The position numbers and the translations under genes are program-made. Under the pieces are notes generated by a model. The model was given only the letters and a program-made list of their open reading frames with translations, was not told the DNA's origin and made no database searches. Below are positions 2,195-36,394 of a DNA stretch of 40,001 nt, in pieces. The stretch spans positions 5,128 to 45,128 of the forward strand of contig JAUNDF010000002.1 in assembly GCA_030526225.1 (NCBI GenBank). The letters are read 5' to 3'. Each line of letters opens with the position of its first letter. The first letter of the stretch is position 1. This DNA is from Clostridia bacterium (GTDB lineage: Bacteria > Bacillota > Clostridia > Christensenellales > Aristaeellaceae).

Positions 2195-2239
2195 GTGTGT
2201 TCCCTCCTGTATGTTGAGTGTGGGTTGGGGGATGCTGTG

Positions 2240-4804: not shown

Positions 4805-4865
4805 CAGCGACCTCCTTTCTGTCCCCGGGGGCGAAAGCCGCAGGGACGCGTATTTCTGCCCGGGC

Positions 4866-5657: not shown

Positions 5658-5660
5658 GGA

Positions 5661-7226: not shown

Positions 7227-7247
7227 TGTGTCACCTCGAAGGGTCGG

Positions 7248-8310: not shown

Positions 8311-8883
8311 TCAGGGCAGTATCTCGATGCCGCTTTCTTCCAGCAGCCTGCGGGTCAGGTCCAAAGGCAGGCCAATGACGCAGGAGGAGCTGCCGCGGAT
8401 CTGGTCAATCCACAGGCCCGCTGCGCCCTGCAGTGCATAGGCACCGGCCTTGTCCATGGGCTCGCCGGTGGCGATATAGCGGCGGATTTCTTCATCGGTC
8501 ATGTGGGTAAAGTGCACATCCGTCACGTCGGTGCCGGTGTGCATCAGCCCGCTGCTGTCGCAGACCACCACGCCTGTGCAGACCTGGTGCCAGCGATTGC
8601 GCAGGGAGGAGAGCATGCGGAAGGCATCCGCCTCATCCCGGGGCTTGCCAAGGGGCGTGTCATCCACAAACACAAGGGTGTCGGAGGCCAGCACCGTGCA
8701 GCCGGGGTGTGCCTTGGCAATGGCGGCTGCCTTTCTGCGGCTGATTTCCACCACCGCCTCCTTCATGGGCAGGGCGCAGCTTTCGTCCACATCGGCGGAT
8801 TCCACGGTAAAGGGAACGCCGGTCAGGGCCAGCAGCTCGCGTCTGCGGGGGGAAGCGGATGCCAGAATCAGTTGCGTGTTCAT
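8311..8883 (-). CDS. maf: Maf-like nucleoside triphosphate pyrophosphatase / septum formation protein
   Basis: 190 aa with LILASASPRRRELL and GAYALQG. It is the first gene of the maf-mreBCD cluster. Confidence 0.9.
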   Translation of the reverse strand: MNTQLILASASPRRRELLALTGVPFTVESADVDESCALPMKEAVVEISRRKAAAIAKAHPGCTVLASDTLVFVDDTPLGKPRDEADAFRMLSSLRNRWHQVCTGVVVCDSSGLMHTGTDVTDVHFTHMTDEEIRRYIATGEPMDKAGAYALQGAAGLWIDQIRGSSSCVIGLPLDLTRRLLEESGIEILP

Positions 8884-11164: not shown

Positions 11165-11186
11165 GTTCTTTTCCTCCCTCGCACGA

Positions 11187-12983: not shown

Positions 12984-13016
12984 AAAGATTTCCTCCTTAA
13001 GAAAATCGTGTGCGTC

Positions 13017-13385
13017 TTATTCGGCAGCGCCGATGGTGTACTCCTCAACGGGATGACCGTTGACCACGTGCTCGGCCACAATGCGGCCTACCATTTCGGG
13101 CGTAACCTTGACATAGGTGACCTTTTCCTGACCGGGCAGATACACATCCACCATGGGCTCCAGGCGGCACATGCCCACGCAGCCGGTCTGGCTGACGGTC
13201 ACATGCTCAAGGCTGCGCTTGGCAATTTCATCCATGAAGGCCAGCATCACAGGGCGGGCGCCGGCGGCAATGCCGCAGGTGGCCATGCCGACCACCACGC
13301 GGGCAGCATCGGCGTTTTCCTTGCGCATGGCGATATTCTCCAGCGTTTTGGCGCGGATGGCTTCCAGTTCAGCAAGTGATTTCAT
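13017..13385 (-). CDS. Thioredoxin-like [2Fe-2S] ferredoxin (HndB-like)
   Basis: About 122 aa with Cys at ATCGIAAG and GCVGMCR. The ATG at 13385 follows AAAGGAG; the TTG at 13391 in the track is less likely. Confidence 0.8.
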   Translation of the reverse strand: MKSLAELEAIRAKTLENIAMRKENADAARVVVGMATCGIAAGARPVMLAFMDEIAKRSLEHVTVSQTGCVGMCRLEPMVDVYLPGQEKVTYVKVTPEMVGRIVAEHVVNGHPVEEYTIGAAE

Positions 13386-13416
13386 AAGCAATTCTCCTTT
13401 ATACAGGCAATCTGAT

Positions 13417-13959
13417 TCAGGTGAAAACAGGGTCGATTTCTTCCTTCAGCGCATCCCGCAGCCATGCGGCAATCTCCGGCTCGTTCAGGGGCAGACCGCC
13501 CAGCACGGCACGGACTTCGCGGGTGTCGAAGGTGCATTCACCCCGGGGCGATTTCCCCTCAAAGCGGAAATCCGGGGCAAGGGGGTTGGTAATCATCAGG
13601 CTCAGCAGTGTGCCGGATAAATCCCCCAAGGGCAGACAGTCGATGCATTTGGTGTTCATGGTTACGGTAAGCGCTGTGCCCACCCCAACCTTGGACGTGA
13701 TGACCAGGTCGCCCTCGGCCAGCCGGGCGTTTTCCAGCATCATGGGGATGCCGAGGCCGACCTTGCGCGTGGTTCTGGTGGTGGCAAAGGGGCTGGTGAC
13801 CCGGCTGAGCAGCTCGGGGTCCATGCCCTTTCCGTTATCCTCCAGCACCATGGTCAGCCAGCCGCTTTCGTCGATGGAAAGGCGGATGACAATCAGTGAC
13901 GCGCCGGCGGATATGCTGTTTTGGGTCAGGTCCAGCAAATGCAGGGACAAATCACGCAT
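13417..13959 (-). CDS. GHKL/histidine-kinase-like ATPase domain protein
   Basis: 180 aa with EDNGKGM and GLGIP (N and G boxes). It is embedded between the hydrogenase subunit genes. Confidence 0.8.
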   Translation of the reverse strand: MRDLSLHLLDLTQNSISAGASLIVIRLSIDESGWLTMVLEDNGKGMDPELLSRVTSPFATTRTTRKVGLGIPMMLENARLAEGDLVITSKVGVGTALTVTMNTKCIDCLPLGDLSGTLLSLMITNPLAPDFRFEGKSPRGECTFDTREVRAVLGGLPLNEPEIAAWLRDALKEEIDPVFT

Positions 13960-13971
13960 GGCAAATCAACC

Positions 13972-14439
13972 TCAGCGATACTTGGCCACAATGGCGGGAA
14001 TCTCGTCGGGGGTCAGGCGGCCGTAAACCTCGTCGTTAATCATCATGACGGGGGCCAGACCGCAGGCACCCAGACAGCGGGTGGCGTTGAGGGTGAAGCG
14101 GCCGTCGGCGGTTGTCTTGCCCACGGGGACCTTCAGCTCCTCGCTCAGCTTGTCCAGCACCTTCTGGGAGCCCTTGACGTAGCAGGCGGTACCGAGGCAT
14201 ACGCCCACGATATACTGGCCCTTGGGCTCCAGAGAGAACTGTGCGTAGAACGTGGCAACGCCGTAAACCTCGGCCAGGGTGGTGCCCAGACCGTCGGCGA
14301 TGATCTGCTGCACATCCATGGGTACATAGCCGAAGATTTCCTGTGCAGCCTGCAGGACGGGCATCAGTGCGCCGGGAACATCCTTATGCTTGGCAATGGC
14401 TTCCTGCAGAAGCGCGTATTTTTCCTTCTGATCAGGCAT
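13972..14439 (-). CDS. hydC: NuoE-like [2Fe-2S] subunit of the hydrogenase (HydC/HndA)
   Basis: 155 aa with CLGTACYVKG and CLGACGLAPVMMIND. Confidence 0.9.
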   Translation of the reverse strand: MPDQKEKYALLQEAIAKHKDVPGALMPVLQAAQEIFGYVPMDVQQIIADGLGTTLAEVYGVATFYAQFSLEPKGQYIVGVCLGTACYVKGSQKVLDKLSEELKVPVGKTTADGRFTLNATRCLGACGLAPVMMINDEVYGRLTPDEIPAIVAKYR

Positions 14440-14632
14440 GATGTAATTACCTCCTTGAATCGGGCGGCTTGACGGATGGATGCCGTCACAGCCTAAATCG
14501 TTTTAATTTTAACATAAATTTGGCAAAAAGGGAAATGGAAAAACACAAAAAATCCGCAATATCAGCAAAAAAATACAAAAAACATAGAAAATCACGAAAA
14601 AATCATACCGGATTACCCAAAAAGAGGAAGAA
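14440..14632 (-). promoter_or_regulatory. AT-rich leader/promoter region for the hydC-hydA structural genes
   Basis: This is the only AT-rich gap in the locus. The minus strand has an extended -10, TGtTAAAAT (forward 14506-14514), with only a weak -35. Phased T-tracts lie upstream (forward A-tracts 14567-14602), and a small hairpin gacgg-atggatg-ccgtc sits at 14471-14487. Confidence 0.3.
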
Positions 14633-15346
14633 TCAGCGGATGATTTCCTTCCCGGAGGCGGCCAGCAGGGTATCGAACAGACCGCCGGCGGAAAACCTGT
14701 CCGTGGGGAAATCGAACACCGCCTATTGAATCTTGCCCAATTGGTGGGCATCGGAGGAATGCAGCACCGCTCTGCCTGCAAGGATTTTCTCATTGATGGG
14801 CAGCTGAGGGGAAACCTCCACCAGCCCGTAGTGCGGCTCATCAGGCATCAGGCCCAGATTGACCAGCAGGCCGTTGCTGCCCCGGTTGATGTGGGCCGGC
14901 ACCGCAATGCCCCCTCTGCGGCGAACCTCTGCGGTGCATTCCTCAAGGGATAAATCCGTGGCGCCGATGAGCATCCTGTCCTCGGTGAAGCGAATGACAT
15001 CATCCGTGTCGCGAACATACTGGGTGCCGAAGAAGTCGGGCATGTTGGGCATATCCGGCAGATGGGAGGAGAAGAATTCCCCGGCATCCACCGCAGCCTC
15101 CACGGTGCGGAAGTACCCCAGCAGGTGCACCTCCTCCCGGGTGGTAATCTCCAGCCCCGGCAGCAGAATCAGCCCGAAATAATCAGCCGCTTCCTTGACA
15201 TAGGGCAGATTGAGGGCGGAGTTGTGGTCGGTGACGGCGATGGCCTGCAGCCCTTTGATGTGAGCCATGCCGCAGATGTTGGCGGGGGTCATGTCCTCAT
15301 CTGCGCAGGGGGACAGGCAGGAGTGAATGTGCAGGTCAACCAGCAA
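14633..15346 (-). CDS. PHP (polymerase/histidinol phosphatase) domain protein; the apparent TAG stop at 14723-14725 is read through to TGA at 14633
   Basis: DLHIHS, VTDHNS and HSSDAH motifs are present. After ...HQLGKIQ-TAG the frame stays open for 29 codons (AVFDFPTDRFSAGGLFDTLLAASGKEIIR) and ends at TGA. Confidence 0.7.
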
Positions 15347-15352
15347 GGCGTG

Positions 15353-15706
15353 TCAGTCCTCTCTGTTGTGCCCGGGCAGCCCTGCGGCGGAGAGCAGCGC
15401 GCACAGCTCGTAGGCGGTCAGGTCGCTTTCCAGCACGGTGATGTCTTCATCGATGGCCTTTTTCAGCGTGGCCTCCTCAATGTGGACCCCCTCGGGCAGG
15501 ATGACGGCAGCCATTTCCATCAGCGCGGCCACGGCAATCACGTTCATGTGGGTCTGGACGGTAATCCACGCCATGCCGGACTGGCCGTGGGCCATGACCC
15601 AGCTGAGCAGGTCGCAGGCATAGCCGCAGGTCACCGGTCGGGATTTGTCGGTATCGGGGGTTACATCCACCGCGCGGGTCAGGGCAGTCAATTCGGCAAT
15701 GGTCAT
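15353..15706 (-). CDS. DRTGG domain protein
   Basis: 117 aa, paralogous in size and position to 17510-17863. A typical companion of HydS-like genes. Confidence 0.7.
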   Translation of the reverse strand: MTIAELTALTRAVDVTPDTDKSRPVTCGYACDLLSWVMAHGQSGMAWITVQTHMNVIAVAALMEMAAVILPEGVHIEEATLKKAIDEDITVLESDLTAYELCALLSAAGLPGHNRED

Positions 15707-15728
15707 GGGGCATCAGTCCTTCCCATCT

Positions 15729-17027
15729 TTACTGTCTCGTATTCTGTGCCAGGGCCACCATTTGCTGGGCCATGGCGCGCAGGTGATCCTTCAGGATGTG
15801 GATGCAGTCCATCTCGCTGGCGTAGCCCCGGACGATATCCTCGGCGAAGGTGCGGCAGGTGGGGGAGCCGCAGGAGCCGCAGTCGTAGCCGGGCAGGCGG
15901 TTGATGGTTTCGTCAATCTGCTCCATTTTCCGCATGGCCTCGATGATGTCGTCGTCCAGCCGCATGGCACCGTTGGGCAGCACCACATCGGGTGCGTGCA
16001 GCTGGATGCCCTCCAGCAGGTTCAGCTCCACCGGCTTTTCCGGCAGCAGGGCCGGGTCGCCTTCAATCAGCCGGCGGACGATATTGCGGGCCACATAGTT
16101 GTTTTCAAAATTCAGCGGACCGCCCACGCAGCCGCCGGTGCAGGCGTTGCCCTCGAAGAAATCAAGGTCGCTGAGCTTGCCGTCCTCAATCTCCTAAAGC
16201 ACACGGATGACGTTCTCAATCCCGTCCACGGACATGCTGCTGCTGTGGCCCACCGCATTGGCCTCGCCGCCGCTGTTGGCCCAGCCCACGCCCAGGGCGC
16301 TGGCGGTGACCAGCGTGTCATCCTCTTCGGCTTGCTTGGTGTGGCTTGAGAGCAGACCGTAGATTTCCAGCACGCTGATGGCCCCGTCCACCGCGGAGGT
16401 GGGATGGCCGATGGGGGAGCGGATGGCGGTCACCTTGGCCGGGCAGGGAGTGATGAAAAAGCAGCCGATGTCCTCCTCCGGCACGCGGTTTTTCCTTGCG
16501 AACGCCCGCTTGGCCATCATGGCGGCAACCTCCATGGGCTGGCGCACATCCACGAGGTTGTCAATCAAATCGGGGAAGCGCACCTGAATCAGCCGCACAA
16601 TGGCCGGGCAGGCGGAGGAAATCAGCGGCTTGGGGCAATCAGGCTCCCGCAGCTTTTCCTGAATGACGCGGGTGACCACATCGGCACCCCGGGCCACCTC
16701 AAACACATCGTCAAAGCCCATTTTCTTCAGCCCCGCCAGCACCGGAGAGATGCTGTGCAGCGTTTTAAACTGCCCATACAGGCTGGGGGCCGGCAGGGCG
16801 ATTTTGTATTTGAAGGCGCTGATGGTGCTCAGCGGGTCCGTTACCGCCACCTTGGCGTGATGGTCGCACACGCGGATGCATTCGCCGCAGTCGATGCACA
16901 GCTCGTCGATGATATGCGCTCTGCCGCCGCGCACGCGGATGGCCTCCGTGGGGCAGCGCTTGAGGCAATTGGTGCAGCCCCTGCATTTATCCGCCAGAAG
17001 CGTGACAGAGTGGAAGCGTTTTTCCAT
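15729..17027 (-). CDS. HydS-like (putative sensory) [FeFe]-hydrogenase-domain protein, with one in-frame TAG at 16194-16196
   Basis: It has two N-terminal ferredoxin motifs. The H-cluster-type motifs are SSACPAIV (Ala at the relay-Cys position), TPCPAKV and ACTGGCVGG. A C-terminal CGSCGSPTC Fe-S domain follows. ORFs 16194-17027 and 15729-16127 share a frame (900 nt apart). The junction reads ...NVIRVL-TAG-EIEDGKLSDLDFFEGNACTGGCVGG. Confidence 0.8.
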
Positions 17028-17064
17028 TTTGGTTCAGTCCCTTTCGGATTTTGGTACAGCGTGG

Positions 17065-17487
17065 TCAATGCAGGGCAAAGCCCATCTCGATGGTGGTGCC
17101 CACCCCCACCTGACTTTCAATAGAGAAGGTGGAGGCGTTGCGCTTCATGTTGGGCAGGCCCATGCCGGCGCCAAAGCCCAGGGCCCGTGCCTGATCGCTG
17201 GCGGTGGAGTAGCCCTCGGTCATGGCCTTGTCAATATCCGGGATGCCCGGGCCCACATCCTTGCTGATGAGGGTAATCATGTCCGGGTCCACCCGAAGGG
17301 TCAGGGTGCCGCCCATGGAGTGGATGACCAGATTCAGCTCCACCTCGTAGCAGGATACGGAGATGTGCCGCAGCACCTCGGCGTTGATGCCCAGCTGCTT
17401 CAGCTTGCGCTTGATGGCCGTGGAGGCCTGACCGGCAGCGGCGAAATCCCCCGCTTCCACATTGAATACCTGTTCCAGAATGGCCAT
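17065..17487 (-). CDS. Anti-sigma-factor-like serine kinase / GHKL ATPase
   Basis: 140 aa with DVGPGIPD and GFGAGMGLPN. Confidence 0.75.
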   Translation of the reverse strand: MAILEQVFNVEAGDFAAAGQASTAIKRKLKQLGINAEVLRHISVSCYEVELNLVIHSMGGTLTLRVDPDMITLISKDVGPGIPDIDKAMTEGYSTASDQARALGFGAGMGLPNMKRNASTFSIESQVGVGTTIEMGFALH

Positions 17488-17509
17488 GGTGATGCTCTCC
17501 TTTCCTGTA

Positions 17510-17863
17510 TCAGTCTGCCTGACGGGAGCCGGGCAGATGGCGCAGGTACAGCTCCCCGCAGGAGGTGTAGGTGGTCATGGGCGTGGAAATCACCGCCAGC
17601 CCTGCCTCCCGGGCAAGGGTCAGCATTTCCTCGCTGGGCTGCTTGCCCCGGCTGAATACAATGCAGACCGCATCCAGCATTTCGGCGGTAATCATCACCT
17701 GGGGATTAATCAGCCCCGTAATCAGCACCGCCTTTTCATGGGCAAAGGCCAGCGCATCGCTCATCAGGTCCGCCCCGCAGGCGCAAAGGACCTCCTCGCC
17801 CAGCATGTCCTCGCCGGCCAGCAGCTTGCCGTGCAAAATCTCTCTGATTTCTCCGATGGTCAT
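17510..17863 (-). CDS. DRTGG domain protein
   Basis: 117 aa with AVLITGLINPQV...IVFSRGKQP...GLAVISTPMTTY. First gene of the regulatory module. Confidence 0.75.
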   Translation of the reverse strand: MTIGEIREILHGKLLAGEDMLGEEVLCACGADLMSDALAFAHEKAVLITGLINPQVMITAEMLDAVCIVFSRGKQPSEEMLTLAREAGLAVISTPMTTYTSCGELYLRHLPGSRQAD

Positions 17864-21999: not shown

Positions 22000-23039
22000 C
22001 AGTTCAGCACCGCCGCTTTCATCCCGCCCCAGCGGGTCGTTTGGGATACCAGCTGCCGCAGCCCCTGCAGCATGGCGGGGGTGGGCTGCTGGGTGAGCAT
22101 GGAGGCCAGCACCTCCTGCATATCACGCATACCAACGCCCTGCTTGGCCAGAATGCGCAAATCCTGCACGGCCTCATCCTCGTTGGTTTCCGGGCGCACG
22201 GCATCCTGAATCAGACCAATCATCTGCAGCGTGGTTTCTGCCTCTTCAGGCAGGATGCCCGCCACGGCGCTGAGCAGCGTCATTTCGTCCATTCTGGGGG
22301 GCAGGCTGCTGCCCATGGCGGCAATGAAGGGCTCCGGCTCCGCAAGGCCCGGGTGCAAAAGAAACCGGCGGCCGTCCATGCGGCAGATAAAGTCACAGCT
22401 GATGTGCAGATACCGCTGGCACAGGCGGATGTCATCGGGGTCATCGGTCTCCATGGCATCCTGCACCAGATGCTCCAGCGCCTCCTCAAAGGGGACCACG
22501 CCGCGTATGTACAGCAGACCCCGCAGCGTCATGTCAAAGCGCATCAGGCGCTCGCGCAGCTCCTTGTGCACGTCATCGAAAATCATCTCGGCCACGGAGG
22601 GCACCAGCTACGGGGACATGCGCAGGAACAGCCGCTCGTCATCAACCCATTCAAGGTAGCACCACAGCCGCCGCACCAGCGACTCGGCAGGGAGGGCATC
22701 CTCCATGTCTGTCAATTCGGCCCGGCCGCCGCCCACAATCAGCTTTTCCAGCAGCAGATGCTCGGGGAGGGTGACCAGCGCCGTTTCCACCGGAAGGTTT
22801 TCGATGACCATATCCCGCAGCATGCTGACGGTATGCAGCCGCCTTTCCCGGGGGAACTCCTGGGCAGCATGGCTGATGGACCACAGCTGCTCGGCGCGGC
22901 TGTCATCCTGTAAAGCGAATAAATCAAAATCCGGCAACCCGGAAAGCCGGCTTTCGCAGGCCTCCAGCTGTCGGAGATGCAGGACAGACATGGTCTTGTC
23001 CGCCCAGTGATCATACCGAACATTGTTTTCCCGAAGCAT
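21999..23039 (-). CDS. Hypothetical protein (346 codons), with one in-frame TAG at 22608-22610
   Basis: ORFs 22608-23039 and 21999-22604 share a frame (435 nt apart). The junction reads ...ERLFLRMSP-TAG-LVPSVAEMIFDD. A strong RBS, AAAGGAGAACAA, precedes the ATG at 23039. There is no RBS or start for the second half. Stop is TGA. Confidence 0.65.
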
Positions 23040-23153: not shown

Positions 23154-24221
23154 TTACAGCTTTACAATCCAGCCGTTTTCATCAGCCACGCGGCCGTACT
23201 GGATGCCCGTGAGGGTATCGTACAGCTTCTGGGCCACAGGGCCGATTTCGCCGCCGTTGATGGTCAGCTTTTCATCGCCCCAGGCCAGCTCGCCCACGGG
23301 GGAGATAACGGCTGCCGTGCCGGTGCCGAAGGCCTCGGTGCACTTGCCGGACTTGATGTCCTCAAAGATGTCGGCCATGGCCAGCTTCTTTTCCTCCACC
23401 TCAAAGCCCAGCTGCTGTGCCAGGGTGAGGATGCTCTTGCGGGTGATGCCGGGGAGGATGGAGCCGTTGAGGGCGGGGGTGACAATCTTGCTGCCGTAGG
23501 CGAACATCATGTTCATGCTGCCCACTTCTTCTACATACTTCTGCTCTACGCCGTCCAGCCACAGCACCTGGGCATAGCCCTTCTTCTCGGCGATTTCGCT
23601 GGCGTAGATGGAAGCGGCGTAGTTGCCGGCGCACTTGGTAAAGCCGGTGCCGCCGCGGACGGCACGCACGTATTCATCCTCCACATAGATGCCCACAGGC
23701 TTGAGGCCCTCCTTGTAGTAGGCACCGGAGGGGGACATGATGATGAAGAACAGGTAGGTCTTGGAGGCATGCACGCCCAGATGCACATCGGTGGAAATCA
23801 TGGTGGGGCGGATGTACAGGCTGGCACCGTCATTGTGGGGCACCCAGTCCTGATCCACATCGATGAGGGCCTTCAGGCCTTCCAGGGCCAGGGCTTCATC
23901 CAGATGGGGCATGCCCATGCGCTCGGCAGAGCGGGACATGCGGGCGAAGTTTTCCTCCGGGCGGAACAGCTGCAGCCCGCCGTCTGCACGGCGGTAGCAC
24001 TTGGTGCCCTCAAAGATGGCCTGACCGTAGTGGAACACCACGCAGGCGGGATCCAGGGCGAAATCACCGTAGGGGACCACGCGGGGGTTGAACCAGCCCT
24101 TGCCCTCTTCGTAGTTCATCAGGAACATATGGTCGGTAAACACGCGGCCAAAGCCCAGCTTGGATTCGTCCTCCGGCTTTGCCTTCAGGTTCTGGGATAA
24201 GGTAACAGCAATCTTTTCCAT
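23154..24221 (-). CDS. ilvE: Branched-chain amino acid aminotransferase
   Basis: Class IV aminotransferase-like sequence (FEGTKCYR, GTGFTKCAGNYAAS). I place the start at MEKIAVTL (24221); the upstream track extension lacks an RBS. Confidence 0.85.
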   Translation of the reverse strand: MEKIAVTLSQNLKAKPEDESKLGFGRVFTDHMFLMNYEEGKGWFNPRVVPYGDFALDPACVVFHYGQAIFEGTKCYRRADGGLQLFRPEENFARMSRSAERMGMPHLDEALALEGLKALIDVDQDWVPHNDGASLYIRPTMISTDVHLGVHASKTYLFFIIMSPSGAYYKEGLKPVGIYVEDEYVRAVRGGTGFTKCAGNYAASIYASEIAEKKGYAQVLWLDGVEQKYVEEVGSMNMMFAYGSKIVTPALNGSILPGITRKSILTLAQQLGFEVEEKKLAMADIFEDIKSGKCTEAFGTGTAAVISPVGELAWGDEKLTINGGEIGPVAQKLYDTLTGIQYGRVADENGWIVKL

Positions 24222-24470
24222 GGGATAAAGCCCCTCTCTTGTATCATTTGCGCCCGGTGGGGCGGATAAAAAGCATGGTCGATATGGCCATACACCCATT
24301 ATACAAAGGGGGAATGGGCTGTCAAGGCGATTGGATACAGAAACACATCAGAAAGACAATCCGAAACCGCCGGAGGCAAAACAAGGATTTTGTGCCGCGG
24401 GGGTGGAAATATATCATATTAGGGTATTGTTTATTAATTGTAAGAAATAGATTTGAAGGGGGTCTGCGGC

Positions 24471-26348
24471 ATGGTGCGATATCTGTTCCTGTTCGGGGAT
24501 GCTGCGCTGCGCCTTACCCGTGTTTCCCTGTGGGCGGATGAGAGCGGCGCCGTATGCGCCATCCCCGGGGATGATGATGAAATCCGTGTGGTGCACGTGG
24601 GGCTGAATCCCCCGGATGAAGCACTGCAGAAGCGGCTGGCGCTGTACGGTGCCTTCGGCAGCATGGCGGACGGAAGCCCCTGCCGGGTGTCCTTTGTCAG
24701 CCTTTGCCCCCGGCTGCCCGGGGGGAAGCAGTCCCTTCAGGGGGCAGCCGTACCGCAGGAGGCACTGCTGTACCGCGCCCTGTTCGGGGAAGAAGAGGAA
24801 GACCTGCAGGCATTGATGGCCCGCCACAGCGAGGCCGCCGAGGCAGTGCTGCGCCGCTGGCTGACCGGCGGAAGCGACCCTGCGCTGAAGGATGCACTGG
24901 ACGACATCCGTGATGCGGCGGAAAGCTGCGGCGCGCAGGTACTGCTGTGCGCTCAGGGGGATGACGGCTTTGCCTGTGCCGGCATGATGACCATGCTGGA
25001 TACGCTGGCGCAGATGAAGCAGCAGTCCCGGGGCTACCTGAAGCTGGGGGCCATGGCTCTTCTGCCCGATGGAGAGAAGAATGGTGCCGGTCAGCTGGTC
25101 AATGCGCTGGCAGACCGGGCGGAAACCGGCGTGCCGGATGTGGTGTCCCTGATGGGCTGCCCCGGCTGGCAGGGCGGCGCGCAGGCTGATTTTATGGACC
25201 TGCCCGCCGCCGCACTGATGCTGGATTTCTTTGCGCAGATGGATATCCCGCGGGAACCGCAGGTGCATATGCTGCATCTGGCGGATTCCCTGTACACCGC
25301 CGATTTGCTCCCGGGGGCTGCCATGGCAGGCTATCAGGCGCTGGTGAAGGCATCGCTGCTGTATCGCTATGAAATGCTGCCCGTGATTCGGGAGCGGCTG
25401 GCATCTCCGTCCCTACTGAAGGACAGGCAGCGGGGCTGGTATGCCGCCGGCTTCGGTGCAGTGCGCAAGCTGGATGAAAACCACCGGCAGGAGACCATCC
25501 GCAGGGCGGAGCAGCTGGCTGAACTGCTGAAGCTGTACACCGAGGACATGGCGCAGATTGCCGATACGGTCCCTGCCGCCCTCAGTGCCGGAGACAAGCG
25601 CGCCTCTGCCATGCAGGAGGCGGTGAAGAACTACCGTGCGCTGCTGGAAGCCGCGGGTGAGCTGGCGGATATCGAGCGCACCATGAAGGCATACAATCTG
25701 CAGGATGACGGTGCAGTGGTCCGCGGCAAGGGTCCGGATGATTTTGCCGCGCGTCTATTGCGGGACGCAGCAGAAAAGCGCAAAGAGCTGCAGCAGCTGC
25801 GCCAAGTGCAGGCATCGCTGGACAAGACCATCGGCGGCATGGGCAAGCTGATGCTGATGGACCGCATGCTGGCAGGCATCCGCCGGGCATTGGCCGTGGA
25901 GGAAAAGGAAGCGGCCCGCCGGGAGATGATGATTGCGCAGATTGAGCGGGACAACCCCGGCACCCTTGAGGAAATGGAGCAGCGCCGGGTGCCTCTCAAT
26001 AGGCTGGCCATGCACATTCAAAAGCTGCGCAGCCAGCAGGAATATCTGGAAAAGGAACGGCAGGAGGCGGAAGAAACACGCCTGTGGGCCGAAGCACCGG
26101 AGGTGGAACCGGCCTGCACCGTGCTGCCCGGCGCTGCCGCGCTGGATGATTTCCGTAAGCGGGCGGTGCAAATCCGCAAGGACAGCGAGCTGTATCAGCT
26201 GCTGGATGACCTGCTGCCCGAATGCACACCCTGCCGCACGGCAGAAAAGCTGTTGGGCGGCATCAGCCCGGCACAGACCGGCGATGAGGCACTGCATCAA
26301 CTGATGGCACAGCTGTGCCGCATGTTCAGGGGAGAGGAGGCGCGATGA
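24471..26348 (+). CDS. Large uncharacterised protein A (625 aa; globular N-terminal half, charged coiled-coil-like C-terminal half)
   Basis: The ATG at 24471 follows GAAGGGGG, and an in-frame TAA lies at 24441. No family was recognised. The stop overlaps the start of the next gene (ATGA). Confidence 0.7.
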   Translation: MVRYLFLFGDAALRLTRVSLWADESGAVCAIPGDDDEIRVVHVGLNPPDEALQKRLALYGAFGSMADGSPCRVSFVSLCPRLPGGKQSLQGAAVPQEALLYRALFGEEEEDLQALMARHSEAAEAVLRRWLTGGSDPALKDALDDIRDAAESCGAQVLLCAQGDDGFACAGMMTMLDTLAQMKQQSRGYLKLGAMALLPDGEKNGAGQLVNALADRAETGVPDVVSLMGCPGWQGGAQADFMDLPAAALMLDFFAQMDIPREPQVHMLHLADSLYTADLLPGAAMAGYQALVKASLLYRYEMLPVIRERLASPSLLKDRQRGWYAAGFGAVRKLDENHRQETIRRAEQLAELLKLYTEDMAQIADTVPAALSAGDKRASAMQEAVKNYRALLEAAGELADIERTMKAYNLQDDGAVVRGKGPDDFAARLLRDAAEKRKELQQLRQVQASLDKTIGGMGKLMLMDRMLAGIRRALAVEEKEAARREMMIAQIERDNPGTLEEMEQRRVPLNRLAMHIQKLRSQQEYLEKERQEAEETRLWAEAPEVEPACTVLPGAAALDDFRKRAVQIRKDSELYQLLDDLLPECTPCRTAEKLLGGISPAQTGDEALHQLMAQLCRMFRGEEAR

Positions 26349-29300
26349 TGGAGGAAAAGATGACAGCCCGAACCGGGGAGCAGACAGCCGACCGTCTGCT
26401 GCCCTCCTTCAGCATGCTTCCGGTGTGCGATATCCCCGCAGACCAGCCCACGGGTGTGGTGGGCATCGGCCACGGCAGCAGCCGCTGGCTCCGCCGTCTG
26501 GCCGACCGCCTGGGCGGCACCGGCATGACCTATGCGGCCAAAGAAAAGCTGGCCGGGGCCATCCGGGACAAGGGCGAGGCATACACCTGCTGGCGGGGAA
26601 TGCTGGCCATGCTGCTCCTGTGGGATTTGCACCGTGATGCGCCCCAAGCCTTGGAGGCCGTTTGCTGGGACAAGGGCACGCCTTTGGCCGCCATGCTGCT
26701 GGAAGCCTCCGGTCTGCAGGACAGCGCCGCCTTTGGGGAGAAGCTGTGCGTGATGACCCTTCGTCAGGGCGGCAGACAGCTGCCTGTGGCCATTCCCGAC
26801 CGGGAGGCACTGCTGGTGCCCGCCGTGGATGCATCCCTTGACAGCGACGTGATTCCCCCGTGGGTCACATGGTTTGACCGGGATGAGGGCAAAATGCAGG
26901 ACCCCGTGGGGCTGATGAACGAAACGGAGCGGGAGGTGCTGGTCAAGCGGCTGCAGCTGTTCCTGCAGGCGTATGGCGCGGAGGAAAGCGCCCTGTCACA
27001 GGCGGTGCGCCAATTGGCAGAGGACACGGCAAAAATCAACCGCGATGCCAGAGAAGCCCTGTCAGACAGCAAGGGCAGTGCCGTGCAGGAGCTGGCATTG
27101 CGCATTGAGGCCATCCTTGGGCTGAAGGGTCACGAGGCTTTCCCGGGGCTGACCGGCGACAGCGCGGTGATGCAGACCGGCGGCACCAATCCGGTGCTGA
27201 GTGCATTGCACATCCCCCACAGCGCGGACCGCAAGCTGGTGTGCTGCACCACCTACCGCTGGAACGGCGTTCCCTTTGCCCGGGATGCCGAGCGCTTTGT
27301 CTACGAGCCTACGGGCCATGCTGACGAAGCCGCCGCGCTGGATGAACTGAGCCTGGAGCTGGACCTTGCGGCGGAATATATCCCCCACTGGAACGAGCAT
27401 CTGTCCGGGGGGCTCAGCGAGCTGTGGGAAAAGTGCAAGCGCAAAAACCGCCTGTATCCCGCGGTGACCAAAACGGTGTTCCAGCTGTTTGGCCGTGCGG
27501 ACAAGCAGAAGGAAACAAAGCCCGTGGTGCTGAACATTCCCGAGGAACGGGGTCTTGCCGCCGCCGGGTATCTGATGAAAACACTGCTTGGCGATGATGC
27601 GGCCCAGCTGCCCCAGAAGCTGTTCAGCGACCGGCTGACGCTGGTGCCCTTTGCCGCCCTTGCGGATGGTGCGCTGGCACAGGCCGCCTTTGTCCGCTAT
27701 GATGAGGACGGCAGCCCCCTGTGCGCTCTGCCGCCCCTGTCTGCGGCGCTCACCGCCTTTTTGACCGAGCGGGCTCACATCACCCTGCAGCCGGAGGGGC
27801 TGCGCTTCCTGCCTGCCGATGAGGAGGGCAGCCTGTAGGTGCGCCTGATGCTCCGCGGCGCGGGGGAGGTGTCCTTCAGCCGCGTATATCGGGCAGAGGA
27901 TATCATCACCCTGAACCATGACAGCATGCCCACGGTCAGCGTGTGGCCCGGCGTGGCTTTCCCTGAGGGGGACTGGCAGTATTATCTGCTTTAGGCCTTC
28001 CGCGGCGAAGAAGGCATCACCTTCAGCGTGTGGGAAAAGGATGGCTGGGTGCACTGCGCTCAGGGTGCGGAGGAGCGCATTTTCCGTGGGGCAAGGTGCA
28101 GCCGTTATCCCCGATTGATGGCCGTCAGCATGGACGGACTCTCCTTGGGTGCACTGCCCGATACGCCCCCTGTGTGCGATGTGCCCTCCGGCGGCGAAGC
28201 GGCGGCGGGCATCGACTTCGGCTCCTCTGCCGCGGCCACGGCCATCCTGATGGGCGACAGCATGATGAGCATCACCGGGGCAGATTGCCGCCGGGTGCTG
28301 ATGCAGGGCGAATTTGCGCCGGTGCCTGTGCTGGCCCAGCCGGTGATGCCCTCGGCACTGCAGCTGTGCGCCCGTCAGCTGCCCCATCGCCCCCAGCCTA
28401 TGCTGGACAGCCGCATCCCCTCCGAGGCGGATACGCTGGCAGAGGGCGCGGAAAACATCATCGACAACATCCCGTGGCGGGTGGAAAATGACCGGCAGGA
28501 AATGATTCGCCTGTACATGCTCCAGCTGATGCTCACCACGGCGCTGGCCTGCCGCCTTCAGGGTGCCGACCGCATCACGTGGCGCTTTGCCCTGCCCGAC
28601 AGCATGGCTTAGGCCGGCAAGGCATCGCTGATGAACCAGCTGTCCTACCTGACGGATGAACTGGCGGACATGACAGGGCTGCCTGCCCAAAAGGAGCCGC
28701 CGGTGATGGTCCCCGGCTGCCGTGCTCAGATGCTGTACTTCCGCGAGCGCAGGGATGTGAATGTGCGCGGCGGGTGCATCCTGCTGGATGTGGGCAGCAA
28801 CGGTGCCTCCGTGGCCCTGTGGCTTCGGGGCAGGCAGGCCCCTGTGCTGCAGATGGCGCTGCCTCTGGGCGTGGACCTGATGCTGGAAACCATGGCGGAT
28901 GAAAGCCAGATCAGCGCACTGCTGCACCTGCACGGCGCCTTCCTGATGCTCCTTTCCGGCGTGATGGCCCAGAGCGTGTACATGACCTCCTCCGTCAGCC
29001 ATCTGCTGCCGGAAACCATGCCGGTGTGCATGGCGGGACGGGGCGGCTCCTTGCTGCAGCGCATTGACGAAATGGACCGCATCCGCCTGCTGGACTTTAT
29101 GCGCCCGGCCATGGAGGAGACCCATCCCACCGTATCCGCCGGCTATGTGTTCAGCGAATACCCGAAGATGGAAACAGCCGCCGGCCTTGTGCTGTATGCT
29201 CCGGAGCAGGAGGAGGACACCGCCTCTGCCGGCATTGCCATGCGGACCCCGTGGCCGCCGGAGCAGCTGCTGATTGGCTTTATGCGCCTGTTCGGCGTGC

Positions 29301-29500
29301 GCTTCCCCTGGGAGGCTGCCGCCATGTTCCCGCAGATGTTTGCCCGGGACGGCTACCTGTCCGTGGACGGCGAAAACCTGCTGATGGCGCTGGCGGAGGA
29401 ATGCATGACCGGCCAGCCCCTGACGGACGGGCTTTTGCGGGTGATTGCACAGCTGCGCACCATGGCCTTCCCCATGGGCGGCAGCATGGATGAAATGTGA
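26345..29500 (+). CDS. Very large uncharacterised protein B (about 1051 codons) with a C-terminal actin/Hsp70-fold (ASKHA) ATPase domain; three in-frame TAGs (27836, 27992, 28610)
   Basis: Track ORFs 26315-27838, 28028-28612 and 28631-29500, plus the 51-codon gap segment, are all in one frame (start positions all 2 mod 3). I verified codon by codon that TAG is the only interruption. ASKHA-like motifs are AAGIDFGSS (from 28208), ILLDVGSNGASVAL (about 28787) and CMAGRGGSLL (about 29030). These parallel the MreB motifs in this window. Confidence 0.7.
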
Positions 29501-29577
29501 TGCTTTGCGCATACCGGCCCCATGGGCTGGACGATTGTATCAATAACTGAATCAGGATTCCGGAGGTGAAAGCAACC

Positions 29578-29889
29578 ATGATGAAGAATCTGCAGGTATA
29601 TGCCTACTGCCGCTCCGACCCCGGTGAAGGGGAGGAGACCATCGACCGCCAGAAGGCAAAGCTGGAGGCCTACGCAAAGGATAAGGGCTGGACAATCGTC
29701 GGGTGGTACATCGACCGCAACATCGACGGCAAAACCCCCGACAGGCCGGAGATGAACCGCCTGAAGGCTGATACCGCCGATATGACCAATCCGGCGGTGA
29801 TTATGGAAAAGTTTGCCACCTGGTTTTCCCGGTCCAACCCCGATGATTTCTCCGTGCCGTTTCTGGCCTATGTGACGGAGGCAAACTGA
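29578..29889 (+). CDS. Small resolvase-catalytic-domain-like protein (degenerate, no DNA-binding domain)
   Basis: 103 aa. VYAYCRSD..TIDRQKAKLEAYAKDKGWTIVGWYIDRNIDGKTPDRPEMNRL is collinear with serine-recombinase N-termini (YxRVS..Q...L..YA...GW.IV..Y.D.G.SG...RP). The RVS and SG signature residues are altered. Confidence 0.5.
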   Translation: MMKNLQVYAYCRSDPGEGEETIDRQKAKLEAYAKDKGWTIVGWYIDRNIDGKTPDRPEMNRLKADTADMTNPAVIMEKFATWFSRSNPDDFSVPFLAYVTEAN

Positions 29890-29910: not shown

Positions 29911-30909
29911 ATGAAAAGATTGTTTGCGGCGGTGCTGGCCATGGTGCTGGCGCTGTCCCTGACCTGTGCCCATGGCGATATCCTCCCCGATACCGCCCCG
30001 CTGGGCCTTTCCTTTGATGTCAACGCCGCGGAATGGGAGCCGGATTTGATGTTCCTCGACTCTGCGGCGGCAGACAAGAGCTATGTGCTGCTGTATGCCA
30101 TGTACATCAACAGCGCCGTGATGGACCCGCTGGCGGATGCCTATTAGCAGGCCTATGAAGCCGGTGACGAGGCCGGGGCAGAAGCGGCCCTGACGGCGTA
30201 CCGGCAGGCACAGACGGCCAATTCCGCTGTGTGCGGCATGCTGGTGGGCTTTGAAAAATCACAGGCGGATGCGCTGAAGGCAGAAATCTTCGGGGATGCC
30301 CAGCTGACAAAGGTGGGCGAAAGCAGCACCCATGTGTACTACAAAATCGTGGCCGAGGAGCCTGACGAAGCCCTTTCCCCGGAGAATCAGGCAGAGATGG
30401 TCAAGGCCATCGCCCTGACAAAGCAGGTCTTCGATGCGGCACAGGTGGTTGAAATCACCGAGGAAAGCTATACCGGCACATCCATCGGCGCCTTCTCCAC
30501 CCGGGATCTGCAGGGCAGTGAGGTGACGGATGACATCTTCGCACAGGCGGATTTGACCGTGCTCAACGTGTGGGCCACCACCTGCCCGCCCTGCATCCGC
30601 GAGATGCCCGAGCTGGAGGCATGGTCCCATGATCTGCCCGAAAATGTACAGGTCATCGGCCTTGTGATTGACGTAAGCGACACCTCCGGCAAGGTGTATG
30701 ACACCGCCATGACCATCATCGGCAAAACCGGCGTCACCTACCGCAACCTGATGATGGACCGCTCCCTGACGGGCTTTGTCAGCGGCATCATCGGCACCCC
30801 CACCACCTTCTTTGTGGATAAGGACGGCCGTCAGGTGTGCGAGCCTGTGGTGGGTGCGTATATGGACATGTACAGGCAGAACGTGACTGACTGGCTTTCC
30901 GGCCGGTAA
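29911..30909 (+). CDS. TlpA/ResA-like thioredoxin-fold lipoprotein, with one in-frame TAG at 30145-30147
   Basis: Signal peptide MKRLFAAVLAMVLALSLTC and active site WATTCPPC. ORFs 29911-30147 and 30229-30909 share a frame (318 nt apart). The junction reads ...DPLADAY-TAG-QAYEAGDEAG. Confidence 0.75.
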
Positions 30910-32547: not shown

Positions 32548-34062
32548 TCAGTCCGGCTGCACCAGCCTTGCCATCTGCTGCTCCAGCAGCTGATAGAACT
32601 GCCCGAGCTGTCTGCCGTCCACCAGCGCGTGGTGGCACAGCACGGTGACGGGCATTATCCACCGCCCGGCAGCATCCTGCGTGTATTTTCCCCAGGTGAT
32701 GCGGGGGTTGCTGTCATCCCCGGTGGGCTGGATGAGGGCGGTATAGCTCAGCCACGGCAGGCAGGAGATGAAGTACAGCCCCTCGCTGTTTTCATCCTCC
32801 GAAAGTCCCGATTGCTGTCGGCTTGCTTCCTGCGCGGCCTTTGCTTCCCTGAGATAGGTTTCCAATGGCAGATGATGGTTCAGCGTGCAGTACACATAGG
32901 TGCCGTCGGGCATGCTCTCCGTGTGGGAGGTGCCGCAGCGGCTGTATTCCACAATGCTGTCGCCGCGGATGCGCTGGCGAAATTGCGGGATGTCATCCGC
33001 CGCCAAGGCCGCCGCGTGAAGGAACATTAGGAAAAAGGAAATGCCGCGGGCCTTGCACCGGTCCTTCAGGGCGGTGACATCCACCTGAACGGTGGTGCCC
33101 ACATAGGGGTTGGCCATGGTGCGGAAGTAGTCGAAGTGGGTTTTGCGGGGATAGGCGGCCATGTCCACCGGACGGTAGAGGGGCGGACGATACACTACCT
33201 CGAATTCCTCCAGCACACAGTCGCCGTGCCGGTCAAAGGGCAGACCGGCGGCTTCGTAATCGGGGGTGAAAAAGCGGAGATGCACCTCCCGCCATTTTTC
33301 CAGACTGCGGTCATCCTCGCCCTCGCGGAAGGCGTGGGCCGGGCTGACTTCGTCAAAGGGCACCACGCTGACCTTTGTATCCCGGATGATGCAGGCGGCC
33401 TCATCGTTATCAAACAGAACCACGCTGAGGCACCCGACCTTCGGAATGGGCTCGCCCTCGGTCCGGTAGGCAATCATGGCGCTGGCGGTGGCTGTTTTGA
33501 TGCCGGCCAGCACAAGGTCAGCCAGCTCATCTGCCGCAGGTCCGCCGCCGCAGAATTTCCATGTGTCGTGGGGGGTATCGGTGCTGATGCCGGAGGCCTG
33601 ACAATAGGATAGCCACAATGCTTCGCCGGTCATGGTGCTTCGTTCCTTTCCTTGATGTAATACACGGATTCCGCATCCCTTTCGGTAGAAGCGGTTGGTG
33701 CGCCGGTTGCAGGCGGGGGTATCCAGCCGGAAGGCCGGGGCTTGCGGGAACAATGCTTCCACGGCTTCCATCAGCCGGATGCCCAGCCCCTGCCGGTGGT
33801 GTGCAGGGTCGACGAAGATGCGCCCGATGAACACGCCCTCATCCCCCTCAAAGAGGATGGCACCGCCGAGAATGGTGCCGCTGTCATCGGCAAAGGTGTA
33901 CAGGTGATGCTCCTGCCGCATCTGCTCGTGCCAGTGGGGATTGTCATAGTCCGGCGGACCGCCGGGGGAATCCATGCCTACGGATACATCCGTGTCAAAG
34001 GCGGCTTTGGAGATGGCGGTGAGAGCGGCCACTTCCTCGGGCAAAGATGGGTACAGCTTCAT
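32548..34062 (-). CDS. Three-domain fusion: GNAT acetyltransferase, ASCH domain and chloramphenicol-acetyltransferase-like domain
   Basis: A single 504-aa ORF with no stops. The GNAT core is RIFVDPAHHRQGLG..RFY. The ASCH part starts at MTGEALWLSY...LAGIKTATAS. The CAT-like part runs YPRKTHFDYF...LCHHALVDG. Confidence 0.7.
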   Translation of the reverse strand: MKLYPSLPEEVAALTAISKAAFDTDVSVGMDSPGGPPDYDNPHWHEQMRQEHHLYTFADDSGTILGGAILFEGDEGVFIGRIFVDPAHHRQGLGIRLMEAVEALFPQAPAFRLDTPACNRRTNRFYRKGCGIRVLHQGKERSTMTGEALWLSYCQASGISTDTPHDTWKFCGGGPAADELADLVLAGIKTATASAMIAYRTEGEPIPKVGCLSVVLFDNDEAACIIRDTKVSVVPFDEVSPAHAFREGEDDRSLEKWREVHLRFFTPDYEAAGLPFDRHGDCVLEEFEVVYRPPLYRPVDMAAYPRKTHFDYFRTMANPYVGTTVQVDVTALKDRCKARGISFFLMFLHAAALAADDIPQFRQRIRGDSIVEYSRCGTSHTESMPDGTYVYCTLNHHLPLETYLREAKAAQEASRQQSGLSEDENSEGLYFISCLPWLSYTALIQPTGDDSNPRITWGKYTQDAAGRWIMPVTVLCHHALVDGRQLGQFYQLLEQQMARLVQPD

Positions 34063-35047: not shown

Positions 35048-36394
35048 TCAGAACCGGACGGTAATGGCGGTGCCCTTGCCCTCTTCGCTCTCCAGCTTGA
35101 TGTCGGCGCTGTGGATTTCGGCAATGTGCTTGACGATGCTCAGGCCCAGACCGGTGCCGCCGGTTTCCCGGGAGCGGCTCTTGTCCACCCGGTAGAAGCG
35201 CTCGAACACGCGGCTTTGCTGCTCCTTCGGGATGCCGATGCCGCTGTCGGATACGGTGAGGATGGCGTGGCTGTTCTCCGAGGAGACCTTCACCCGCACC
35301 CAGCCGCCGTCACGGTTGTAGCGGATGGCGTTCTGCAGCAGGTTCTCCAGAAGCTCCTTCAGCTGTTCGCGGTCGCCGGTGAGCATGGTATCCGTGCCGA
35401 TGCAGCTGATGGTGATGTTCCTTTGAGCGGCGGTGATACGCAGGGTGCGCACACAGTCCAGCGCCAGCTTGTACAGGTTCAGGTGCTCGAATTTGTGGGG
35501 CAGCTACTGATGGTCCAGCTCGCTGAGGCGGATGATGTCGTTGATCAGGCTCAGCAGACGGTCGGCATTTTGGTGAATCTGCCCGGCGATTCTGCCGGAC
35601 TGGTCCGGGGGCACCATGCCCGCTTCAATCAGCTCTGCATAGCCGGAAATGGCGGTGAGGGGCGTTTTCAGCTCGTGGGAGATGTTGGCGGTAAAATCCT
35701 GCCGGCTTTTGACGGAGGACAGCAGCTTGTCGTGCTGGCTGCGGATTTTATCCGCAAAGGGCTCCAGCTCCCGGTATTCCATGGGGTCGATGTGGTCCAG
35801 ATGCTCGGCCATCTTGTTGATGGGGCGGATGAGCTGCACCGTCAGCAGATGACCGATGACGATGCACAGCCCCATGATGACGGCCAGAATCACCACCATC
35901 ACCGGCAGGGCGGAAAGCATCACGCTGATGATGGACCGTGCCTCGGTGGATACGCGCAGAACCGTGCTGTCCGGCAGGAGCAGCGCGTAATAGAAGGTGG
36001 ACATGTTCTGCGTGGAGGAGGTGCGGGTGCTTTCACCAGTGCCCTGCGCCAGGGCAGCGGTGATTTCCGGGCGGTCCAGGTGGTTGCCCAGGGCATCGGC
36101 GTTGGTATCGTTGTCATACAGCACACGGCCGTCATGATCCACCCAGGTGATGCGCAGACCGTCCACATGCATGGCAGCCATGGGGGACAGGTCGATGGCG
36201 TCCGGGTTGCCGCCGGCCTTTTCGTAGGCGGTCTGGAAAATCCCCGTGCCGGAAAGCATCCGGGCGTTGGTGGCAAGGTCCATGCGGACCCGGCCCACGA
36301 AAATGTTGTAGTACACAAAGGTCAGGGCGGCGGTGGTGGCCAAAATGGCAATCAGCGCAATCAGCCCCAGCCGCAGGTTGATTTTCTGCTTCAT
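35048..36394 (-). CDS. PhoR-like sensor histidine kinase, with one in-frame TAG at 35504-35506
   Basis: It has two TM segments, the H-box SHELKTPLTAI, the N box LLQNAIRYN, and G boxes DSGIGIP and GGTGLGLSI. ORFs 35504-36394 and 35048-35452 share a frame (942 nt apart). The junction reads ...LSELDHQ-TAG-LPHKFEHLNLYKLALD. Confidence 0.8.

Follow-up and report, generated by a model that had tools for sequence, protein, structure and literature searches.

The tubulin fold and the actin fold are those of the two great families of cytomotive filaments, which are normally studied separately. Among tubulin-like proteins, the FtsZ-like 1 family (FtsZl1) of Makarova and Koonin corresponds to the Pfam family Tubulin_2 (PF13809) (PMC9871819), and its members combine an FtsZ-like N-terminal domain, which has inserts between the T1 and T4 loops, with an extended coiled coil and a C-terminal part made of helices (PMC2875224). 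Already in 2010 these proteins were predicted to belong to membrane-remodelling operons with vWA, GTPase and OmpA genes, a vWA partner gene being present in most of them; the text of that work mentions no actin-fold partner, and its supplement holds one FtsZl1 operon where three vWA genes accompany a gene for a COG0443 (DnaK-like) protein of 1,626 amino acids (PMC2875224). Here we describe a locus of two coupled genes, A and B, on the forward strand of a 40,001-nucleotide stretch of DNA (hereafter the window, whose coordinates are used throughout) from a Clostridia bacterium of the Aristaeellaceae (assembly GCA_030526225.1, contig JAUNDF010000002.1, positions 5,128 to 45,128). With high confidence, its products are partners that join a motif-degenerate tubulin fold to a giant protein ending in an ASKHA (actin/Hsp70/sugar-kinase) fold. 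A preliminary description of this DNA, made from its letters alone, had concluded that both proteins match nothing that could be named, a view that no longer holds, since A can be placed with FtsZl1/Tubulin_2 by transitive homology and the two genes form the heart of a cassette that recurs in bacteria and has received no experimental study. In the literature searched, no publication describing a Tubulin_2-ASKHA pair was found.

The coupled genes and the folds of their products

The features of the locus, all of them on the forward strand, are the following:

24456-24463, forward: Shine-Dalgarno-like GAAGGGGG, 7 nucleotides 5' of the ATG of gene A, read from the sequence
24471-26348, forward: gene A, ATG start, 625 amino acids, candidate motif-degenerate tubulin-fold protein of the FtsZl1/Tubulin_2 type with a coiled coil
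24471-25310, forward: A residues 1-280, alpha/beta Rossmann-like, predicted FtsZ-like N-domain with a helical insert between strands 3 and 4
24480-24515, forward: A residues 4-15, YLFLFGDAALRL, T1-loop position, with a degenerate sequence (canonical relatives: A[IV]GGTGNK)
24939-24989, forward: A residues 157-173, VLLCAQGDDGFACAGMM, T4-loop position, that of the tubulin signature, with a degenerate sequence (canonical relatives: LCGSIFGGTGASGIP)
25314-26075, forward: A residues 282-535, long helices, predicted coiled coil (AlphaFold model)
26345-26348, forward: ATGA overlap, start codon (ATG) of B overlapping the stop codon (TGA) of A, translational coupling
26345-29500, forward: gene B, 1051 codons, TGA end, giant protein carrying an ASKHA domain at its C-terminus, intact when TAG is taken as a residue
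27782-28159, forward: B residues 480-605, beta-rich domain directly 5' of the ASKHA domain, common to distant paralogues of ~1050 amino acids
28193-29464, forward: B residues 617-1040, predicted ASKHA domain (Foldseek; Pfam in relatives)
28208-28228, forward: phosphate-1 motif GIDFGSS, B residues 622-628, with D624 and G626 invariant in the close family
28781-28819, forward: phosphate-2 motif LLDVGSNGASVAL, B residues 813-825, with D815 and G817 kept and GGT-x-D lost
29030-29050, forward: adenosine-motif region MAGRGGS, B residues 896-902, with G898 invariant and G900 nearly invariant

The ATGA overlap confirmed the translationally coupled unit that had been proposed for the locus, and the overlap recurs in four other loci. 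B is built of an N-terminal region of ~480 residues, the beta-rich domain, where Y515, W534-P535, W544, Y547, P589 and G602 are conserved, and the C-terminal ASKHA domain. In the AlphaFold model of B (14 sequences; mean predicted local distance difference test score, pLDDT, of 66), residues 617-1040 adopt the duplicated beta-beta-beta-alpha-beta-alpha-beta-alpha order. At E≤0.001, a Foldseek search of this model against the PDB gave 102 matches, of which the 50 listed belong without exception to the ASKHA superfamily, including GppA/Ppx, PilM, MreB, ParM, EutJ (template modelling score, TM, of 0.56), the nucleotide-binding domain of DnaK, ROK kinases and actin. None of these families stands out, with E values from 3e-5 to 5e-4 and TM scores of 0.3-0.56. 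B itself gave no meaningful match in Pfam, NCBIfam or PHROGs and falls in no Pfam ASKHA family, nor did its profile match any PDB sequence. On the other hand, weak Pfam matches were obtained in 30 members of the B family, namely MreB_Mbl in two (best 4e-6), Ppx-GppA in two, FtsA in one and EutA in one. The family consensus VDFG, LDxGGGTxDxSxW and CLAGNG corresponds to the phosphate-1, phosphate-2 and adenosine motifs, and D624 and G626 are invariant in alignments of 9 and 14 sequences and nearly so in one of 30. The phosphate-2 stretch of the window reads DVGSNGAS against the consensus D-x-GGGT-x-D. By model and motifs, B thus ends in an ASKHA-fold domain, as the preliminary description had proposed from motifs that it compared with those of the MreB encoded in the window (7248-8270, reverse strand) and that lie where it had placed them.

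The AlphaFold model of A, made from a 12-sequence alignment (pLDDT 72; predicted TM score 0.65), shows alternating strands and helices over residues 1-270, long helices over 282-535 and short helices over 555-619, in agreement with the globular N-terminal domain followed by a long coiled coil that had been read from the sequence. FtsZ and tubulin are at the top of its Foldseek matches in the PDB (E 0.02-0.5, probability up to 1.0, TM ~0.3), and nothing significant was found among viral models. In Pfam, NCBIfam and PHROGs, A reaches no family at a meaningful level. Its relatives provide the missing step: among 23 members of the A family, six match Tubulin_2 (best 4.5e-7) and three match PF00091 (best 1.1e-5), and the gene at the A position of a paralogous locus matches Tubulin_2 at 1.6e-6, scoring 28.0 bits where the cut-off is 27. 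The relatives L012, L014, L101, L102, L106, L110, L111 and L113 have T1 loops of the GGTGNK type and T4 loops that read GGTGA[SAC]G, and in the same columns A of the window has LFGDAALR at T1 and LCAQGDDGFACAG (QGDDGFACAG) at T4. A profile comparison with hhalign joined the window clade (26 sequences) to the clade with canonical loops (8 sequences) at a probability of 99.9%, with an E value of 3.6e-33 over 602 columns. By this indirect, transitive route, A is assigned as a putative motif-degenerate relative of the FtsZl1/Tubulin_2 branch. The stretch that had been taken for a faint, degenerate NTPase loop can be read as a decayed T4 loop because it aligns with GSIFGGTGASGIP, the tubulin signature of the relatives.

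In-frame TAG codons and the integrity of gene B

The frame of gene B is interrupted by exactly three stop codons, all of them TAG, and under the standard code B would be cut into four abutting open reading frames (ORFs) of the same frame:

27836-27838, forward: TAG, B codon 498, in a variable family column (R 25, E 14, T 13, Q 6)
27992-27994, forward: TAG, B codon 550, in a family column that is mostly Y 36, S 20, F 7
28610-28612, forward: TAG, B codon 756, in a variable family column (A 13, D 11, P 10, E 10)

The whole assembly (2.19 Mb, 80% complete) was scanned for TAG codons that follow a coding stretch, and 140 of 190 (74%) continue in frame over at least 40 open, coding-like codons. By the same measure only 28 of 643 TGA codons (4%) and 96 of 1000 TAA codons (10%) read on in this assembly, and in 656 kb from relatives the counts were 2/21 for TAG, 9/147 for TGA and 6/135 for TAA. 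Pairs of same-frame ORFs from the assembly place TAG inside conserved parts of ClpB, MutS, RpoD, RecD2 and MnmA, and likewise inside a gene of the DNA polymerase III alpha type, PhoH and histidine kinases. Within the window, RodA carries a TAG at residue 124, inside a single Pfam match that spans residues 17-379, a hydrogenase-like protein carries one at residue 278, inside a match over residues 76-304, and a histidine kinase has one at residue 297 with its ATPase domain lying behind it. Moreover, a six-frame codon model, for which 18 genes of the window verified by Pfam served as the training set, scored A at +0.31 and B at +0.34 per codon, in comparison with -0.30 and -0.45 for the antisense shadow ORFs; all four segments of B score as coding on the sense strand, with a signal that is equal on the two sides of each TAG. 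Because the only stops in the frame of B are TAG, a codon that acts as sense genome-wide, this organism reads TAG as a residue and gene B is intact. The genome-wide counts justify the preliminary description in proposing that these codons be translated.

The identity of the residue was approached through PDB alignments at TAG sites, which place Glu in MnmA and Ala, Arg and Glu in ClpB/Hsp104 and are compatible with Glu, though no test of it; in B itself, the columns that hold TAG vary too much to name a residue. Inference of the residue by tblastn of the ORFs of relatives against the genome was swamped by off-frame matches. Neither RF1, RF2 nor a tRNA with the anticodon CUA was found, a result that is uninformative because the assembly is only 80% complete. 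Among the homologues examined, TAG codons occur inside a B-type gene in this genome only. A few homologues (from G593, G542, G674, G483 and G658) contain a single in-frame TGA or TAA, which may represent sequencing errors or real breaks. Further TAG codons of the window are located at 1017-1019, 14723-14725, 16194-16196, 22608-22610, 30145-30147 and 35504-35506. The locus shows that genes of this TAG-recoded bacterium will be mis-called as fragments.

Relatives, neighbours and distribution of the pair

In every genome examined, the A-like gene and the B-like gene lie next to each other in the same orientation. Many other genomes carry A and B fused into a single open frame of ~1,710-1,790 amino acids, whose N-terminal part is colinear in alignment with the split A proteins. 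A search of 1.84 billion representative sequences with the B profile returned 1,200 proteins at E≤0.001 and 213 at E≤1e-30, and the lengths of the family cluster at ~1,040-1,270 and ~1,710-1,770 amino acids. Because the genes are coupled in several genera and fused in others, their products should function jointly, probably in one complex. Such adjacency, coupling and repeated fusion across many bacteria constitute strong genomic evidence for one functional unit.

The family of the bacterium has the pair in 76 of 301 genomes, with matches in 15 of 72 genera, and one match was obtained among 400 other genomes sampled evenly from the class. Within the carrier genera that were tallied, the pair occurs in 8/8, 8/8, 6/7 and 2/2 species. 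Viral copies were not detected, none of 47 pattern matches in viral contigs encoding a relative. A search for related loci with a 5-sequence alignment recovered five loci in genomes, five in metagenomes and none in viral contigs, and a homologue search with a 9-sequence B alignment found none among 8,000 candidates, B alone giving three proteins.

Fuller versions of the cassette were found in the genera g7, g22, g260 and g280 and in distant paralogous loci, where a gene that we call X lies ahead of the pair; in g7, g22 and g260 and in the paralogous loci, a second gene, Y, likewise lies ahead of it. The X proteins (~550-720 amino acids) start with an N-terminal signal, lipobox or anchor, and the Y proteins (~200-300 amino acids) contain three to five hydrophobic segments, as polytopic membrane proteins do. 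Neither family has a Pfam or PDB sequence match, and profiles of X were also null against the PDB. A reading of X as vWA domains was set aside, given that it relied on an unconfirmed, by-eye D-x-S-x-S-like stretch in the paralogous loci. The X and Y regions ahead of canonical pairs, with X proteins of ~700 and Y proteins of ~218 amino acids, span L101:3992-6844, L102:14329-17089, L109:3260-6073 and L106:14869-17034. The distant paralogous cassette present in some genomes (L110, at G545:C1:1735000-1754000, L111 and L113) comprises four genes, for X-like, Y-like, Tubulin_2 and ASKHA proteins, the last one of 1,030-1,240 amino acids, and genomes of the genus g22 carry both cassettes.

Most of these fuller forms keep canonical loops in both partners. 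Phosphate-2 has its canonical form in g7, g22, g260 and the paralogues and is already altered in B of g280 (DVGGGSAE). The window clade, on the other hand, is without X and Y and has degenerate loops in both A and B. Among close representatives, phosphate-2 fits the consensus in 10 of 77 and is degenerate in the remaining 67, and none of 23 fused representatives keeps the GG[TS]G tubulin signature. In a maximum-likelihood tree built on the C-terminal 560 residues of B, 25 of 28 motif-degenerate rows, fused forms included, fall in one clade with a support of 100/99, which is nested among the canonical forms provided that the tree is rooted on the distant paralogues. Because of this placement under an assumed root, the loss of both nucleotide sites together with X and Y looks derived and essentially a single event. 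The clade can be regarded as a natural experiment in which both nucleotide sites decayed jointly and the membrane partners disappeared, with the genes staying intact and vertically inherited; such persistence suggests a structural role that outlives the enzymatic cycle.

The pair usually follows genes for surface polysaccharides, in sets that differ among carriers. Three genes stand immediately ahead of it in g271 (fused), g268 and g300, encoding a Bac_transf phosphoglycosyl transferase, an NTP_transferase and an NAD-dependent sugar epimerase/dehydratase, and in g271 and g268 a SpoU methylase comes after the pair. The pair lies behind Bac_transf and epimerase genes in g295, behind an epimerase gene in g6, and behind LytR-CpsA-Psr, CpsD-like, CpsB, acyltransferase and MgtC genes in g15; in g7, a group-1 glycosyltransferase precedes X. 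The Bac_transf/NTP_transferase/Epimerase trio of the present genome is on another contig (C112:31550-35034), followed there by an unrelated gene whose N-terminus is carboxyltransferase-like by eye only. Because the trio is on that contig and the pair sits among different neighbours, the pair was most likely relocated away from polysaccharide genes in this genome. Its immediate flanks in the window are as follows:

23154-24221, reverse: branched-chain aminotransferase gene, with an aminotransferase class IV match
24298-24325, reverse: perfect sigma-70-type promoter TTGACA-16-TATAAT, which drives the divergent aminotransferase gene
29566-29889, forward: resolvase-like ORF of 107 amino acids, remnant of a serine-recombinase (resolvase) N-terminal domain, a neighbour and not a conserved part of the module

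The gap 5' of gene A (24222-24470), formerly described merely as AT-rich, is therefore a divergent promoter region. The pair is thus enclosed by the divergent aminotransferase gene and the resolvase fragment, which matches only positions 1-71 of the 145 of the Resolvase profile, and a redoxin gene lies farther downstream. No resolvase adjoins the pair in the other loci examined, so that the association which had been proposed for checking is not conserved, and no marker gene of those loci recurs beside the pair. A vWA gene beside A-B is absent from the window and from its clade.

The rest of the window is ordinary chromosome, with rodA, pbp2, mreC, mreB, maf and hydrogenase genes and, further, genes for a plsC-type acyltransferase, a HAD hydrolase, rluA and a two-component system. 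The rod-shape cluster is complete at 153-8270 on the reverse strand (rodA, pbp2, a 263-amino-acid ORF at the mreD position, mreC and mreB) and is followed by maf at 8311-8883. A link between the A-B pair and this mreBCD-pbp2-rodA cluster, 16 kb upstream, was considered and dropped, as it is not seen in the other loci examined. An [FeFe]-hydrogenase cluster at 9416-17863 (reverse strand) encodes HydA-like and NuoF-like subunits, a sensory hydrogenase-like protein and a PHP-domain protein, each of these two with an in-frame TAG, two HATPase_c proteins and a DRTGG protein. At 32548-34062 (reverse strand), GNAT acetyltransferase, ASCH and chloramphenicol-acetyltransferase-like domains are joined in a single protein of 504 amino acids.

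Possible function and comparison with known systems

A mechanism can be proposed in which A would oligomerise through its coiled coil and bind B to form a stable cytoplasmic scaffold, acting at the inner face of the membrane in the assembly or placement of an envelope glycopolymer. The complex of the window type may still bind nucleotide and would be unlikely to form a GTP- or ATP-driven dynamic filament. The scaffold is conceived as static because the nucleotide sites of both partners are degenerate in this clade, and it is placed at the membrane face because relatives carry exported and membrane partners and the clade adjoins polysaccharide-synthesis genes. As a combined statement, that the core of the cassette is a tubulin-fold protein with a giant ASKHA protein and that their complex is a cytoplasmic envelope scaffold, this proposal appears reasonably probable to us; the envelope-scaffold role taken by itself is a tentative prediction from sequence and genomic context. 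A stronger version, for which we would give rather little credit, sees in the pair an obligate tubulin-fold/actin-fold machine, fused in some lineages, that in this clade has lost hydrolysis in both halves at once and become a static cytoplasmic scaffold positioning or organising surface polysaccharide synthesis. If true, a bacterial structure would be built of both cytoskeletal folds together.

Other explanations account for part of the same data. The patchy occurrence across the genera of the family and the genomes sampled across the class would suit a conflict system, whether anti-phage or other, working as a sensor/effector machine like those of defence islands, as would the non-ancestral place of the pair beside a resolvase remnant in this genome and its long coiled coils and degenerate NTPase sites, both generally common in conflict systems. 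However, every or nearly every species of the carrier genera has the pair, its synteny between housekeeping-type genes is stable, no relative is encoded at the viral-contig matches, and no nuclease, protease, TIR, pore or other effector domain was recognised in A or B. In PADLOC-DB 2.0, B gave no match and A only a stretch of the PtuA AAA domain (residues 311-361, E 0.002), which falls, like the weaker PADLOC matches, at the start of the helical/coiled-coil part and is read as noise. The island or defence idea of the preliminary description fits this near-universality within carrier genera and the lack of viral copies and effector domains poorly, and we regard it as unlikely. The same description had also offered a cytoskeletal or segregation module, which can be kept in a weak sense only, given the degeneracy of both nucleotide-binding sites in this copy. 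A cytomotive system for DNA segregation or cell division, in the manner of ParM/AlfA or TubZ, would explain why both folds are classical cytomotive ones and why canonical relatives keep full GTP and ATP motifs. Nevertheless, the pair is chromosomal and without plasmid or phage context, canonical FtsZ and MreB are encoded separately, no adaptor or centromere-binding gene was recognised beside it (repeat arrays were not searched for), and FtsZl1 proteins are devoid of the T7 and C-terminal polymerisation elements (PMC2875224); together with the decayed active sites of both proteins in the window clade, this makes such a system quite improbable.

It is also conceivable that nonsense mutations at three sites have made B a pseudogene and that what this genome retains of the locus is decaying. 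Three in-frame stops lie within 777 nucleotides of B, the homologues in other genomes are without them, the terminal branch of B is long, the nucleotide-binding motifs of the locus are lost, and the TAG at codon 550 can be reached from a Tyr codon by one change. But all three stops are the codon that serves as sense genome-wide, RodA, ClpB, MutS, RpoD and MnmA included, and in 3,153 nucleotides there is no TAA, TGA or frameshift, where ~17 would be expected by chance (our own estimate from base composition). The coding signal is unchanged across each TAG, and the loss of motifs is common to a whole clade of intact genes, so that decay of this one copy is very hard to believe.

Several observations weigh against a tubulin-fold and ASKHA pair acting as an envelope scaffold. 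A itself reaches no tubulin profile, PF13809 or PF00091, with 0 families at E≤0.05 and nothing but noise up to E 1; its Foldseek matches are weak (best E 0.02, TM ~0.3) and interleaved with Rossmann folds of short-chain dehydrogenases/reductases (SDR), and hhalign against an FtsZ alignment was not significant for either the window clade (probability 0.1%) or the canonical clade. Because A matches no tubulin profile and the structural match is weak, its assignment proceeds stepwise through relatives. The models of A and B come from shallow alignments of 12 and 14 sequences, respectively. The link to polysaccharides is one of synteny only, is missing in this genome and, save for one glycosyltransferase, is also missing at loci of the g7, g22, g260 and g280 type. 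In the tree, the terminal branch of B is the third-longest (1.55 against a median of 0.55), which could reflect relaxed constraint, and the TAG at codon 550 stands in a mostly Tyr/Ser column, where Glu would be unusual.

The closest published kind of system is that of the FtsZl1-centred operons predicted in 2010. A shares with FtsZl1 proteins the architecture of N-terminal domain, coiled coil and helical tail, its relatives match Tubulin_2 above the cut-off of that family, and it is present alongside a normal FtsZ; as in FtsZl1 operons, the fuller relatives of the pair have exported and membrane partner genes. Unlike FtsZl1 proteins, A is shorter (625 against ~850-1,190 amino acids) and has lost the GGGTG(S/T)G-type signature. 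Its gene is not flanked by vWA, GTPase, kinase or OmpA genes as in those operons, its constant partner being a giant ASKHA protein instead. B, in turn, is predicted to share the ASKHA fold of its C-terminal 420 residues with MreB, ParM, FtsA, PilM and EutJ, together with the phosphate-1 D-x-G and the adenosine G-x-G; it differs from all of them in being three times larger, with ~600 extra N-terminal residues of no named kind, and in its degenerate phosphate-2 loop. Within this group of proteins, PilM and FtsA are precedents of actin-fold proteins that work as membrane-proximal scaffolds.

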